From assembly GCF_041248615.1 (NCBI RefSeq), contig NZ_CP158426.1: a stretch of DNA of 64,000 nt; one strand, written 5' to 3'. Origin of the DNA: Escherichia coli (lineage in GTDB: Bacteria > Pseudomonadota > Gammaproteobacteria > Enterobacterales > Enterobacteriaceae). The first letter of the stretch is position 1; every line of letters starts with the position of its first letter. The position numbers and the translations under genes are program-made. Of this stretch, positions 28,733 through 34,765 are shown in pieces. The notes beneath the pieces were generated by a model, which ran no database searches, was not told the origin of the DNA, and worked only from the letters and a program-made list of their open reading frames with translations.

Positions 28733-28747
28733 GAATCTCCCCTGGTG

Positions 28748-28770
28748 GAGAAGACTAAAAAAGTCTTCTC
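28748..28770 (+). terminator. Hairpin downstream of glyU
   Basis: GAGAAGACT-aaaaa-AGTCTTCTC perfect 9-bp stem, but no clear U-tract. Confidence 0.4.
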
Positions 28771-29229
28771 TGTCAGCAACTTAAACAGTTACCTATTTAA
28801 TTTGCTTAGGAGTTCTACCATTGTGATCCGCCCTTAGTAACTGTCACGTTAAGTTACACGGTGAGATGACAGTATAACCTAACGTTGGCGGCAGTTGCAC
28901 CTCTCACACCGCGATAGCACAACGTGAAGATAAAGCCCATCCTGGCATTGTAATGTCATCGACAGACTGAACACACGCATTTAAGCCCGATGTGCGGCCT
29001 TGTGGCTGCGTAAACAGGTTTATGGTGATATTGGTCCTTGCAAACCATATGCAAGCTCTATCAGCGTTTCAGCCACGCTCCCAACGGGTACACGGTTATC
29101 CTGATAAGGTGTGATCTTTCTGACAATCTGATGAAGTCGCTACGCTCCCGCTTGTTGCTGTATCACCAACGGGGCTTTATGGTTTCTATTGTCTATAATA
29201 ATCTCACAATTCCCCTGCATGAGGTTGAT

Positions 29230-29436
29230 ATGACTGTTAGCTACAAGATTACTTATGAGCATAGAGACGGTGATCAAATTAGAATGGAAGAGGTTTTATT
29301 CCATTCAGAGCATGAACCAACAAAAGATGAAATTCATGATGCAGTAAGAAAAGATACTGTGAGATTTAATTCTCCATCTAATGGAGTAACGGCTGTTTCA
29401 GGGTTTAAAGTGATTTCGGTTGTCCCTGTTCCATGA
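29230..29436 (+). CDS. Small hypothetical protein (68 aa) in the accessory island
   Basis: Inside track ORF 29038..29436; internal ATG at 29230 has GAGG upstream and a TATAAT -10 about 35 bp upstream; product MTVSYKITYEHRDGDQIRMEEVLFHSEHEPTKDEIHDAVRKDTVRF... is acidic and soluble; low GC. Confidence 0.45.
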   Translation: MTVSYKITYEHRDGDQIRMEEVLFHSEHEPTKDEIHDAVRKDTVRFNSPSNGVTAVSGFKVISVVPVP

Positions 29437-29445
29437 ATGGTTATA

Positions 29446-29468
29446 GAAGGGGCTGGAAGCCCCTAATT
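29446..29468. terminator. Hairpin between the convergent small genes
   Basis: GGGGCT-gga-AGCCCC stem followed by AATTATT, between the 29436 and 29470 stop codons. Confidence 0.45.
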
Positions 29469-29469
29469 A

Positions 29470-29790
29470 TTACTTCTTAATATCGCCAGTGCATTGATAT
29501 TCGATAGTCACAAGTGTTTGCATACAACCAGATGAAGAAGGTTGTGAACATTGAGAAGTGAATCCACCAAAAGGCTCGGCTCCTGAATATCCCCAAGCGG
29601 CACAACGCGCTTTGGCTGCATTCATGCCTTGTTGTGGATCTACAACAGGACTTTCAAACATACCGTAAGAATAACTCATCCTAACTGTGCCGTCTGATTT
29701 GCTTCCACCAGTTGGAACGAGTTGTTTTTTTGTTGCACATCCAGAAATAATCAATGTTGAAGCAAGTAACAGCATTAAACTTTTGCGCAT
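29470..29790 (-). CDS. Putative Cys-rich lipoprotein (106 aa), unknown function
   Basis: Signal peptide MRKSLMLLLASTLIISGC with lipobox ISGC; four further Cys in the mature part; low GC. Confidence 0.6.
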   Translation of the reverse strand: MRKSLMLLLASTLIISGCATKKQLVPTGGSKSDGTVRMSYSYGMFESPVVDPQQGMNAAKARCAAWGYSGAEPFGGFTSQCSQPSSSGCMQTLVTIEYQCTGDIKK

Positions 29791-29934
29791 GTAAATAATC
29801 CCAAGAGATAATGGTTATGTATTGATTTAAAGCGTTTTTAGATTAATGCATTAACTTAGCAAAATTAAGTCTTTTCTGATTGTTTGCAGAGTAAAAATGA
29901 GTTGCTTTCGAAATTATTTCGGATGTTTATTGTA

Positions 29935-30102
29935 TTACGGTTTTTCAAACCGTCTAACTATTGTCGCTATTGAATGGGCAATAATAGCAAGAGGATTCAT
30001 TTCGTCATTGGAGGCAACAAAAAGTCGGTAACTGATAGCTACAACGAATGAAGCAATAACGAGAAAGCGGATAGTGCTAAGATGTTTTGAAGATAAATGC
30101 AT
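29935..30102 (-). CDS. Possible small membrane peptide (55 aa), speculative
   Basis: Manual translation MHLSSKHLSTIRFLVIASFVVAISYRLFVASNDEMNPLAIIAHSIATIVRRFEKP; one predicted TM helix; AGGGGG 4 nt upstream of ATG; the RBS lies in a CCCCCT/AGGGGG hairpin. Below the 60-aa track cutoff. Confidence 0.25.
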   Translation of the reverse strand: MHLSSKHLSTIRFLVIASFVVAISYRLFVASNDEMNPLAIIAHSIATIVRRFEKP

Positions 30103-30442
30103 AACGCCCCCTAAATGAATGTGAGGGGGATTAAATCATGCAAATTTGTTGTGTGCAATACTGGTAATTTATCCTAATAGTCTACTATTCACCTCAATCT
30201 ACGTCAACCAATATTTGATGTAGATTTGATTTTCTTTTAAAAACAATATTTTGCAATTTGTTGGGTTTTGGGGTTAGGTTGTTTTTTGGACGTTTCCATC
30301 AAGTGTAAAGATACGTTTAGCCTTCATAGTGAGTTCAGTTACTGTCTTTTTCTCTGAAATCGGCGCATACGTGATCATCGCTTAACGAGAAGAGCAGCGC
30401 CGTCAGGTCCATGCAGCGACAATTCTGAAATATCAGGAGGCA

Positions 30443-32200: not shown

Positions 32201-32206
32201 GCGGGT

Positions 32207-32260
32207 TTCCTACCTACCCAGGAAATGAGTTCCTACCTACCCAGGAAATGAGTTCCTACA
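32207..32260. repeat. Perfect tandem repeat, 23-bp unit TTCCTACCTACCCAGGAAATGAG, 2.3 copies
   Basis: Identical units at 32207-32229 and 32230-32252 plus partial TTCCTACA; begins about 7 bp after the promoter -10. Confidence 0.8.
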
Positions 32261-33218
32261 ATACTATAATTAAACTACAATTAAACTATCTTTTATAAAT
32301 TCTTTTATCTTTTAAAGAATAATTATAGGGATACCCGTTAGGGAGTCTTCGACTATCCCTTAATCTATTGGCATTCGCCAGAACCTTGCACAAGTTAGAC
32401 TGATGCTTGTCATAACAGATAGTTTTTGTTTTTTGTTTTTTGTTAGTAGTTAGCTGATCTATGTTCGCTTTCCGCTCACAACGAATATGTAATCTACTAT
32501 GTGCAAATAGCCTACGGCTTGCGTATGGCTAATAGTCTTGCGCTGTGCGCAGAACGATAATTAACTAACTACCATCTAACGATTGAAATTTACTTGTGCA
32601 ATAACCTGAGCGTAAGCGAATGGTTGTTAGTGTCTATGCGCTGTGCGCTTCAATAGTTCCATTGATGAGGCTTACGCCAATCTAACGATCATCAATCTAT
32701 TTAAGAGAAAATCTATTGTGCAATACTCTGACGAGTGCAATAACCTTGTGTGCTACGCGTTAGCGATGTTAGCACATAGACACAGACAACAACCAACAAC
32801 AAACAAAAAAGAAAGAATGGTTTTAGTAGTTGAAGGTTAAATAAGTTTCTACCGCTTAAATCAAGCCGTAGGCGAGCTAAACGTATATAAGGTAGGGAAA
32901 CACTTAGCGGTAATAGATTAGCTCGTTATAGAGCTTCTGAGGAGCTTTACAGGTATTTTATAAGATGTCTGAAATCAGAGTTTATCTATCCACCATCTTT
33001 CCATCATCTGATAAATCAAAAATAAGCCCCTTAAATAAGCCTCTGACGAGATAAACAACCTCTACATAAGGGAATGTATTGTTTTTATCAAAACCCCCGT
33101 CAGAGTGCGATTGAGAGCGTTTTAGACAACAGGGAAGAATTGTACCAGAGTAGGCAGCACAAAAAGCTAAGAAAAATTATAAGAAATTGAAAATGATCAA
33201 GTTTTTTATAAAAGAGGG

Positions 33219-33247
33219 TTGACAAAGCCGCCGTTATGTAGTATTGT
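33219..33247 (+). promoter_or_regulatory. Sigma70-like promoter upstream of the small ORF
   Basis: TTGACA (33219-33224), 17-bp spacer, TATTGT. Confidence 0.4.
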
Positions 33248-33363
33248 AAGTAGGGAGGGGAGAAACATCTCTCTCCATCTAAATAATCAAATCACAGAAC
33301 ACTGCACTTTGAGCCGTCAGGCTGCAAGGTGTGTTTTTCTTTTATCTAAATAAGGAGTTTTTT

Positions 33364-33510
33364 ATGAAATGGTATACACCGGAACACGTCGTAGAGGCAT
33401 TTAAAAAAGGTGAGCTAACACGACATCAAGTAAGGATGAACAGGAACACAGCGCGGCGCTGTGGTTATCCAGAGCGTGAAAAATGCTTTGACGATGCACT
33501 AAAAAGGTAA
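33364..33510 (+). CDS. Small ORF (48 aa as present), probably a 5' gene fragment truncated by IS1
   Basis: AGGAG RBS 6 nt before ATG at 33364; MKWYTPEHVVEAFKKGELTRHQVRMNRNTARRCGYPEREKCFDDALKR; the TAA stop at 33508-33510 lies inside the IS1 terminal repeat. Confidence 0.35.
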   Translation: MKWYTPEHVVEAFKKGELTRHQVRMNRNTARRCGYPEREKCFDDALKR

Positions 33511-33520
33511 TGACTCCAAC

Positions 33521-34024
33521 TTATTGATAGTGTTTTATGTTCAGATAATGCCCGATGACTTTGTCATGCAGCTCCACCGATTTTGAGAACGACAGCGACT
33601 TCCGTCCCAGCCGTGCCAGGTGCTGCCTCAGATTCAGGTTATGCCGCTCAATTCGCTGCGTATATCGCTTGCTGATTACGTGCAGCTTTCCCTTCAGGCG
33701 GGATTCATACAGCGGCCAGCCATCCGTCATCCATATCACCACGTCAAAGGGTGACAGCAGGCTCATAAGACGCCCCAGCGTCGCCATAGTGCGTTCACCG
33801 AATACGTGCGCAACAACCGTCTTCCGGAGCCTGTCATACGCGTAAAACAGCCAGCGCTGGCGCGATTTAGCCCCGACGTATCCCCACTGTTCGTCCATTT
33901 CCGCGCAGACGATGACGTCACTGCCCGGCTGTATGCGCGAGGTTACCGACTGCGGCCTGAGTTTTTTAAATGGCGGAAAATCGTGTTGAGGCCAACGCCC
34001 ATAATGCGGGCGGTTGCCCGGCAT
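33521..34024 (-). CDS. insB: IS1 InsB (transposase C-terminal part, expressed by -1 frameshift as InsAB')
   Basis: 167-aa [61 protein letters not shown]... Confidence 0.95.
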
Positions 34025-34218
34025 CCAACGCCATTCATGGCCATATCAATGATTTTCTGGTGCGTACCGGGTTGAGAAGCGGTGTAAGTGAACTGCAGTT
34101 GCCATGTTTTACGGCAGTGAGAGCAGAGATAGCGCTGATGTCCGGCAGTGCTTTTGCCGTTACGCACCACCCCGTCAGTAGCTGAACAGGAGGGACAGCT
34201 GATAGAAACAGAAGCCAC
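33943..34218 (-). CDS. insA: IS1 InsA (transposition repressor / N-terminal part of the InsAB' transposase)
   Basis: 91-aa [46 protein letters not shown]...; A6C frameshift motif near its 3' end. Confidence 0.95.
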
Positions 34219-34246
34219 TGGAGCACCTCAAAAACACCATCATACA

Positions 34247-34765
34247 CTAAATCAGTAAGTTGGCAGCATCACCGACAAATGCGCTCAACATAATTAGATG
34301 ACTTTTTATATGTTTGAGGATTTTGTTATTGAAATTCTTTGCGCCACCAATGCTCTCTTTGTATCCCGCATTAACTTTTATGGCAGGTGGGGCATTGTGT
34401 GTATGTGCGTCTGTTGACGAGTTTATTACATGATTTTGTATGTTAATGTCATTATGGATCTTGAATCCTCTTCTCGGCACGGTTGCAATTAGCGAGTGGG
34501 TAGTATCACCAACAGCGCGAAATCCGCGTCTGATAATGGATATGTTCTGATATAACGTGTTAGTAGGCACACGCATACCTTCTTCTTCCCAGACTCTGGT
34601 GAAAAAATCTTGTTGTGCAACCACATCAGGAAAAGCTTCAAGTAGAAGTGATAAACATCGACTGGCTGGCGTTGTCAGAACGACGTTAAGATCGGCGTTA
34701 TGTACCGATATTAATTTTCGGTGCTCAGGCCAGAACTCGATATTATCGTTAATAATCCAGTACAT
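34247..34765 (-). pseudogene. yqeI: yqeI 5' fragment (winged-helix regulator) truncated by IS1
   Basis: ORF MYWIINDNIEFWPEHRKLISVHNADLNVV...; native sequence ends at about codon 164 (34274); the last 8 codons (GDAANLLI) and the stop are IS1 terminal sequence. Confidence 0.8.

Follow-up and report, generated by a model that had tools for sequence, protein, structure and literature searches.

A probable IS1-truncated remnant of a satellite-like integrative element, with a conserved, apparently new structured RNA, at the glyU tRNA gene of Escherichia coli

Several classes of small integrated element resemble, in one respect or another, the DNA described here. P4-like elements carry a tyrosine integrase, reside at tRNA genes, measure ~11-13 kb, and combine a variable cargo hotspot near one end with a terminator-containing leader before the early operon, which in P4 is controlled by RNA-mediated termination. 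The PLEs of Vibrio are small integrated elements with modular, fast-diverging initiators of their own and no packaging or lysis machinery; their helper is a large virulent myovirus, and they carry a kilobase-scale non-coding region with several repeat families, which includes the origin and is required for replication (PMC7145576). The cfPICIs of Enterobacteriaceae, ~10-15 kb in length and integrated at tRNA genes or other specific sites, encode their own major capsid protein, and their core is made up of AlpA, a primase-replicase, a protease, a portal, a head-tail adaptor, a connector, TerS and TerL, with no tail genes (PMC10085698). Much of this general architecture, though not the cfPICI core, recurs in a family of elements that we recognized from a 64,000-nucleotide stretch of E. 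coli DNA (contig NZ_CP158426.1, strain NRZ14408; referred to in its entirety as the window), in which the interval between the tRNA gene glyU and yqeI is occupied by AT-rich DNA ending in a copy of IS1. This segment corresponds to the 4.77 kb nearest the tRNA gene in a ~13.5-kb integrative element inserted in the 3' end of glyU, and the locus as a whole is probably an IS1-truncated remnant of a satellite-like element, with a control region and a cargo-leader RNA.

The evidence for a larger parent comes from comparison with the O26:H11 strain FWSEC0001 (locus L003), positions 2-4838 of which are 99.5-99.8% identical to the window. There the same DNA runs on for another 8.8 kb. This extension completes a 60-aa gene and adds, in order, an O/DnaD-like initiator (221 aa), small open reading frames (ORFs), a major capsid protein (342 aa), a helix-turn-helix (HTH) protein, a tape-measure-like protein (613 aa) and a tyrosine integrase (406 aa). 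Eighty-five nucleotides from the integrase, at 13596-13617, lies a 22-nt direct repeat of the glyU 3' end; it is the second copy of the attL core (CTCGATTCCCTTCGCCCGCTCCA) represented by the last 22 nt of glyU, the sole tRNA gene that ARAGORN detects in the window. Together, integrase and att repeat identify the ~13.5-kb element as a classical tRNA-integrated element. A preliminary description, made from the window sequence alone, had concluded that the segment was no such island, as neither a tyrosine integrase nor a direct repeat of the tRNA 3' end was visible. For the window both observations hold, since no integrase occurs among its ORFs and the tRNA 3' end does not recur, even with up to 3 mismatches allowed, but the conclusion does not extend to the full-length copies, and both features are missing here because an IS1-anchored deletion has removed them.

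The IS1 lacks a 9-bp target duplication, its flanks reading cactaaaaa and gacaaatgc, and the match to O26:H11 resumes beyond it at L003 39644; 34.8 kb of the O26:H11 equivalent is replaced by the IS1 in this strain. The IS1/yqeI junction, together with 4.5 kb to its right, recurs at 99.96% identity in the sister strains AR_0085 and ECCWS199, in which ygeQ directly follows glyU and the other side of the IS1 abuts escS or escU within the type III secretion locus ETT2, so that the deletions are shorter. The left junction is found in NRZ14408 alone among 5426 complete E. coli genomes. A fixed IS end with variable partners across these three strains is the hallmark of IS1-mediated adjacent deletion, a process in which one end of the IS stays fixed while the other is joined to ever more distant DNA and no target duplication is formed; the complete IS1, the missing duplication and the nested deletions conform to it in every respect. 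The IS1-mediated right border proposed in the preliminary description is thereby confirmed, and such a border is ordinary, with nothing unusual about it. By this mechanism, an IS1 fixed in yqeI has stripped the strain of all DNA between codon 47 of the first early gene and the middle of yqeI. Relative to O26:H11, the missing part includes two thirds of the element, whatever second island stood at attR, the whole of ETT2, and yqeK and yqeJ. The DNA left behind is a dead remnant, no longer capable of excision, replication or packaging. In ECCWS199 (L020 7123-9120), where two IS1 copies flank a 460-bp fragment of escU within ETT2, the same lineage shows IS1-driven erosion at an intermediate point.

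The foreign character of the segment, already suggested on grounds of composition, is sustained by its GC content of 38.7%, compared with 49.5% for the whole window, in which it forms the lowest 4.77-kb stretch; it has been acquired horizontally. Nor is it a form of ETT2. In K-12, as the preliminary description had stated, the DNA between glyU and yqeH carries ygeQ, the ETT2 remnant and yqeK/J/I, whereas comparison with the K-12 interval and with O26:H11 reveals none of the ETT2 genes (ygeQ through ygeF, yqeK, yqeJ) in the window, where homology to both genomes resumes only inside yqeI. That gene is indeed the right-hand neighbor, but is not intact. The inventory given earlier (a 68-aa ORF, a Cys-rich lipoprotein, a serine recombinase, an ORF-poor stretch and an IS1) is accurate, and the gene content still matches no well-characterized system. 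What required revision was the nature of the island, and what had been overlooked was the structured RNA described below. At least 80% of the length of the segment is carried by 54 of the 5426 genomes. The yqeI-yqeH-yqeG flank (34274-37500) is also AT-rich, with a GC content of 39%, which places the right compositional boundary beyond the end assigned to the segment in the preliminary description. Features of the locus are collected in Table 1.

Table 1. Features of the glyU locus, with positions numbered from the first letter of the window
Feature	Position	Strand	Description
xdhA, actS/ygeR		- (xdhA)	flank preceding glyU
glyU, tRNA-Gly(CCC)	28659-28732	+	ARAGORN; Rfam tRNA, 71.6 bits
Foreign AT-rich segment	28733-33505		4773 bp; GC 38.7%
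Spacer between attL and RNA motif	28733-28983	+	direct reading of sequence
Structured RNA motif (predicted)	28984-29176	+	~190 nt, pseudoknotted; covariation
Orphan cargo ORF	29179-29436	+	85 aa as annotated by RefSeq; 68-aa form from ATG 29231
YecR-family lipoprotein, cargo	29470-29790	-	106 aa; lipobox LIISGC; 5 Cys; PF13992, E=2e-23
Small serine recombinase	30443-30994	-	183 aa, intact; Pfam Resolvase PF00239, E=1e-38, plus HTH
ORF-free region	30995-33363		2.37 kb; 35% GC; no ORF >65 aa
Conserved block 1	31199-31421		flank of ORF-free region
Two 59/60-bp AT-rich palindromic units	31913-32026
23-bp tandem repeat	32207-32259
Conserved block 2	32942-33363		flank of ORF-free region
Conserved promoter-like site	33219-33247	+	TTGACA-17-TATTGT; before early operon
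Leader hairpin with U-run	33304-33343	+	between promoter-like site and early operon
First early-operon gene	33364-33510	+	60 aa when intact; cut after codon 47 by IS1
IS1 (IS1B type)	33506-34273	-	complete, 768 bp; deletion junction
yqeI, truncated	34274-34765	-	first 492 of 810 nt left
yqeH, yqeG			beyond truncated yqeI

Intact members of the family follow a constant order. The tRNA gene with attL is succeeded by the structured RNA, variable cargo, a small recombinase and an ORF-free region of ~2 kb; then by an early operon encoding the 60-aa protein, the O/DnaD-like initiator and small ORFs; and finally by genes for a gpE-type major capsid protein, for HTH and tape-measure-like proteins and often for a distal-tail (Dit-like) protein, before the tyrosine integrase and attR close the element. 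The same architecture was recognized in 12 IMG/VR loci, at thrW in O104:H4 C227-11 and in strain 2013C-3277, at tRNA-Gly(CCC) in Klebsiella and Enterobacter, and at tRNA-Leu(CAA) in Citrobacter and Enterobacter. Across members, the capsid proteins are 53-80% and the 60-aa early proteins 75-83% identical. Four initiator types (A, B, C and D) and an A/B chimera were distinguished; in the chimera (L014 7179-7910), the N-terminal 138 aa are 96% identical to the type of L004 and the remainder 58-64% identical to that of L005 and L008, a modular exchange that recalls the RepA proteins of PLEs. No description of the family was found in the Rfam, PHROG, NCBIfam or PADLOC libraries or in a full-text literature search, which was not exhaustive. 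Identity with the Sakai elements Sp1 and Sp2 at thrW was considered and rejected, these being a lambda-like remnant and a P4-like element, respectively. In O26:H11, a second island (L003 13618-24500) lies in tandem at attR, between the element and ETT2, and carries genes for a 535-aa integrase, a DUF4145 protein, a Rha regulator and a GH15 glycoside hydrolase, as well as an IS66 copy; yqeK/J/I are present after this island and ETT2. A second ORF-free stretch of 880 bp, outside the window (L003 7447-8326), separates the early genes from the capsid module of the same element; it contains GC-rich hairpins, with a terminator-like stem-loop at its end (aaagccggaag...cttccggtttta), and has no Rfam match.

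Judged by gene content, the parent family probably represents a type of phage satellite. Its full-length relatives possess the generic gene complement of satellites, namely an integrase with att sites together with regulatory and replication-initiator genes but no complete tail; the window fragment has lost these genes, and in no member examined were genes for terminase, portal, protease, sheath or tube, or lysis, or fragments of these, found; PHROG matches are limited to the initiator, the major head protein, the tape-measure protein, an excisionase-like protein and the integrase. Relatedness of four genes points to virulent ~150-kb myoviruses of the Phapecoctavirus type (Stephanstirmvirinae) as putative helpers. 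The capsid protein (PF03864, lambda gpE type) is 24% identical, end to end, to the capsid of Phapecoctavirus anhysbys (E=2e-12) and also has a match in phi92 gp124, a capsid of solved structure; identity of the tape-measure-like protein to its phage counterpart is 30-40% (E=1e-58); the Dit-like protein, encoded 3' of the tape-measure gene in element and phage alike, is 53-72% identical; and a 69-aa ORF resembles gp057, an early gene of the phage, at 45% identity. Several considerations weigh against this interpretation. Homology of the capsid to that of the proposed helper is remote, and a 123-aa gene upstream of the capsid gene shows no BLASTP similarity to the phage decoration protein. Tail genes serve as markers against satellites in SatelliteFinder (PMC10085698).

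A more conventional view would regard the parent element as a decayed prophage and the window as its debris. It can appeal to the presence of capsid, tape-measure and distal-tail homologues, to the listing of glyU as a prophage site in the comparative-genomics literature (PMC8767318), and to the fact that RefSeq annotates the proteins of the element as hypothetical only. We nevertheless consider it improbable. At three tRNA genes, and in no fewer than four genera, one gene order of 11-13.5 kb is found with its ORFs intact and its att repeats in place, and it has been kept while the proteins diverged to 53-80% identity, which random decay would not be expected to preserve; fragments of terminase, portal, sheath or lysis genes are absent from every member.

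If the family does consist of satellites, it belongs to none of the classes introduced at the outset. Resemblance to PLEs is architectural only and does not amount to membership: family members use a tyrosine integrase at tRNA genes, have Enterobacterales as hosts, and encode capsid, tape-measure and distal-tail homologues, with a putative dependence on a helper, and PHROG, NCBIfam and PADLOC searches returned none of the PLE markers (capR, nixI, lidI or a RepA_N-type RepA), only the O/DnaD-like initiator. Compared with PICIs and cfPICIs, the core genes are absent (PHROG, Pfam), tape-measure and Dit-like genes are present, and the capsid is of the lambda gpE type (PF03864). Of the P4-like markers, Psu, Sid, Delta, Epsilon and the alpha primase had no PHROG match, and Sp2, the P4-like element at thrW in Sakai, is unrelated to the family.

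Among the parts retained in the window is a block of ~190 nt a short distance downstream of glyU, which comparative analysis predicts to be transcribed into a structured RNA. In the proposed fold, a closing helix (28986-28988 / 29172-29174) encloses a multi-helix core, in which a hairpin with a T-loop-like UUCRGCC loop pairs with GGUU to form a pseudoknot (29071-29074 / 29094-29097); the downstream partner varies among homologues as GGUU, GGUC or GAGC. Two CUGAUGA/CUGAUAA boxes and a CAGG/CCUG helix, the latter supported by the alignment of 28 sequences, complete the motif, and in some sequences the stem of one hairpin has been exchanged wholesale (CUUGCA/UGCAAG, CCUACA/UGUAGG or CCGG/CCGG). 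In this alignment (A4), which spans ~15 genera, 97.2% of cells are paired, compared with 35-39% when partners are slid; 13 of the 43 pairs have changed on both sides (2-5 with slid partners); and the covariation score of 0.225, compared with at most 0.072 for slid partners, was not reached by any of 500 shuffles. When divergent copies from thrW were added, 15 of 39 pairs had changed on both sides. These copies, ~316 nt long, were detected by a covariance model (R1) with E values of roughly 1e-9, and every thrW element of E. coli has one in the equivalent place; the model identified no copy in K-12, in the Sakai thrW region or in the phage. At least eight pair positions are predominantly G-U, which assigns the RNA to the + strand. 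No match was obtained among the 4227 families of Rfam 15, a search of the window and L003 at E<=1 returning tRNA only, and nine other variants of the motif had no Rfam match at E<=5; nor was a description of it found in the full-text literature, again searched non-exhaustively. The strength of the covariation argues that this block specifies a conserved and apparently new structured RNA, of which the window holds an intact copy.

Some caution is warranted in weighing these figures. The sequences form only a few clades, so that shared descent accounts for some of the covariation; the alignment used to score the structure was also the one from which it had been derived; and folding of the single sequence is no better than that of shuffled sequences (z = -0.1). 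A long-range GGUGAU/AUCACC helix was dropped, because its column covaries equally with six others, a two-clade effect. It might be supposed that the block is instead a site recognized as DNA, for instance an integrase or excisionase arm or some other recombination site, as its distance from the att core is constant (~210-380 nt) at four different tRNA genes and its single-sequence folding energy is unremarkable. Base-pair covariation extending to whole-stem replacements and a pseudoknot makes this unlikely, as do the G-U-dominated positions, which would be A-C mismatches on the opposite strand; furthermore, the block is conserved among elements whose integrases are only ~33% identical, and occurs on plasmids with no integrase nearby.

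The distribution of the RNA motif extends well beyond E. coli. A pattern scan of one genome per species yielded 22 loci in ~15 genera, at 17 of which a tRNA gene (Gly-CCC, Leu-CAA, Thr-CGT or Ala-GGC) precedes the motif by 270-380 nt, in the same orientation. In elements of Klebsiella and Enterobacter the block is 86-94% identical, the proteins being far more diverged. The corresponding IMG/VR search gave 37 matches, of which three were real, all identical to known copies. A second copy of the motif accompanies an Enterobacter element (L025 15388-15630), just past its integrase and attR, which suggests another island of the same superfamily in tandem. The block is also present, at ~91% identity, on more than 60 plasmids of many Enterobacterales, and in all three plasmid contexts that were opened it lies just downstream of relBE. 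In these plasmids (pSC138, L725 punnamed2 and p06-1619-NDM; L030, L031 and L032) the motif shares with relBE and a 49-aa ORF a fragment that has IS26, IS5 or IS421 at its borders and may have been captured from an island of the element family; in many Salmonella and Citrobacter plasmids, the motif is split by ISSen3. In the window, the spacer between attL and the motif is 90% identical to that of a Klebsiella glyU element (L021), and contains an 8-bp hairpin (28748-28770) and a 7-bp inverted repeat (ACTGTCA/TGACAGT, 28840-28846 / 28867-28873), possible recombinase or regulator sites.

With regard to its function, the context of the motif is suggestive. Directly 3' of the closing helix stands a conserved UUUAUGG(C/U)UUCUAUUGUCUAAAAU, the AUG of which (29179 in the window) is preceded by GGGG of the closing helix and in most homologues, including most glyU and leuX elements, opens a mini-ORF of five codons. 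In the thrW elements (L005 10690-10790), the conserved AUG instead opens a hydrophobic ORF of 24 codons, MAPIVLKMYLYLYCVLCVVSLCSM, comparable in length to a type I toxin. At ~14 of 19 loci the motif and the gene after it share one orientation, and that gene encodes a different protein each time. We propose that the RNA, which would be transcribed in the direction of the tRNA, acts as a leader or regulator of exchangeable cargo situated 3' of it. In its ~190-nt size, long-range closing helix, pseudoknot, T-loop-like hairpin and k-turn-like boxes, and in its position directly 5' of an AUG with GGGG held within the closing helix, it resembles riboswitch-sized cis-regulatory leaders; it differs from them in having no Rfam match and, unlike a metabolite riboswitch, in being followed by mutually unrelated genes. 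The absence of the conserved AUG from 4-5 of 27 homologues counts against a leader role. A bolder and rather doubtful extension, offered tentatively, is that the motif constitutes a new class of cis-regulatory RNA, the fixed leader of a cargo slot near the tRNA end of widespread, hitherto unrecognized Enterobacterales satellites that exploit virulent Phapecoctavirus-type phages. A signal such as helper infection or read-through from the tRNA promoter would then open the closing helix and switch on the cargo, for which HNH nucleases, RelBE and YecR lipoproteins would be candidate anti-phage or exclusion functions.

What the preliminary description had termed an ORF-poor repeat region is present as stated, and proves to be a conserved feature of the whole family rather than of this segment: an ORF-free region of 1.7-2.4 kb and 35% GC occupies the same position in every member examined. 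Homologues occur in 746 of the 5426 E. coli genomes, where they are never annotated, and none was found among 50,697 phage records. Its flanks are conserved and its centre is variable. The motif ATT[AG]CA[CT] occurs 11 times, compared with 2.4 +/- 1.5 in shuffled sequences, the left cluster on the + strand and the right cluster on the - strand. The leader hairpin ahead of the early operon has a 13-bp stem that is invariant or altered by a paired indel in 13 family members, among which no compensatory substitutions were seen. The 59/60-bp palindromic unit, present in two copies in the window and in one copy in O26:H11 (L003 3306-3359), is the only difference in length between the two elements.

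Taken together, these features make it most likely, with moderate confidence, that the ORF-free region is the cis-acting control region of the element, which, by analogy with the non-coding region of PLEs, would accommodate protein-binding repeats, possibly a replication origin, the early promoter and a terminator-containing leader. The repeats did not qualify as iterons of the initiator, since no repeated 8-10-mer tracks the initiator types, a result that tells against this assignment, and no direct repeats were found inside or after the rep gene. Nor could the repeat motifs be identified with helper-phage promoters, as 68 kb of phage anhysbys shows no enrichment for them. That the region encodes one or more large structured non-coding RNAs is decidedly unlikely: it does contain many short GC-rich hairpins amid AT-rich sequence, with a mean folding z-score of -1.1 on both strands, and it is conserved across the family, but it has no Rfam match, its centre is hypervariable, conservation being confined to flanks with the promoter-like site and repeats, and in sliding-window folding strong z-scores arise only at palindromes, which score equally on both strands and hence reflect symmetry of the DNA.

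Between the RNA and this control region lie the cargo and recombinase genes of the remnant. The 68-aa form of the first cargo ORF begins at an ATG placed behind a GAGG ribosome-binding site; the 85-aa form has only near-identical Escherichia homologues among 5.8 billion proteins, and no match in PHROG, NCBIfam or PADLOC. The PADLOC search likewise assigned none of the cargo to a defence system. The lipoprotein belongs to the YecR family, with PF13992 covering residues 28-100 and a lipobox reading LIISG-C, and the cargo of the related elements L026, L033 and L053 also includes YecR genes. In the recombinase, the N-terminal part is a resolvase catalytic domain that includes the nucleophilic Ser (S10) and the C-terminal part is an HTH; compared at full length, the protein resembles Tn3/gamma-delta resolvases and Gin equally. 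Its gene and ~200 nt upstream form an optional module, the upstream sequence varying with the type of recombinase; a ~190-aa tyrosine recombinase occupies the position in other genera. The ~72% nucleotide identity of the gene with recombinase genes of small plasmids fits multimer resolution better than inversion, and multimer resolution is the likeliest role that its sequence suggests. That it is instead an invertase acting on a switch within the ORF-free region, as the PHROG name "DNA invertase", the oppositely oriented repeat clusters and long inverted repeats of that region, and the FimB-sized tyrosine recombinase of other genera might be taken to imply, is very improbable, given its similarity to plasmid resolvase genes, the lack of any minus-strand segment of at least 60 bp in pairwise comparison of 15 family ORF-free regions (assemblies only), the single 60-bp repeat unit by which near-identical O26:H11 copies differ, and the 6 of 15 E. 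coli members that lack the recombinase and retain the ORF-free region.

From the standpoint of this lineage, the replacement of ETT2 is a case of ordinary IS1-driven genome decay, which explains the variable ETT2 content found within it. The remnant left behind has nonetheless led outward to two seemingly undescribed entities, a satellite-like element family and an RNA motif. The family occurs in about one in seven complete E. coli genomes, those of O26:H11 and O104:H4 outbreak strains included, and also in Klebsiella, Citrobacter and Enterobacter. The RNA, found beside tRNA genes and on many resistance and virulence plasmids, offers a testable handle on how mobile islands control their cargo. 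Should the family indeed consist of satellites, its members could limit, or hitch-hike on, large virulent phages under development for therapy, as PLEs do with ICP1.

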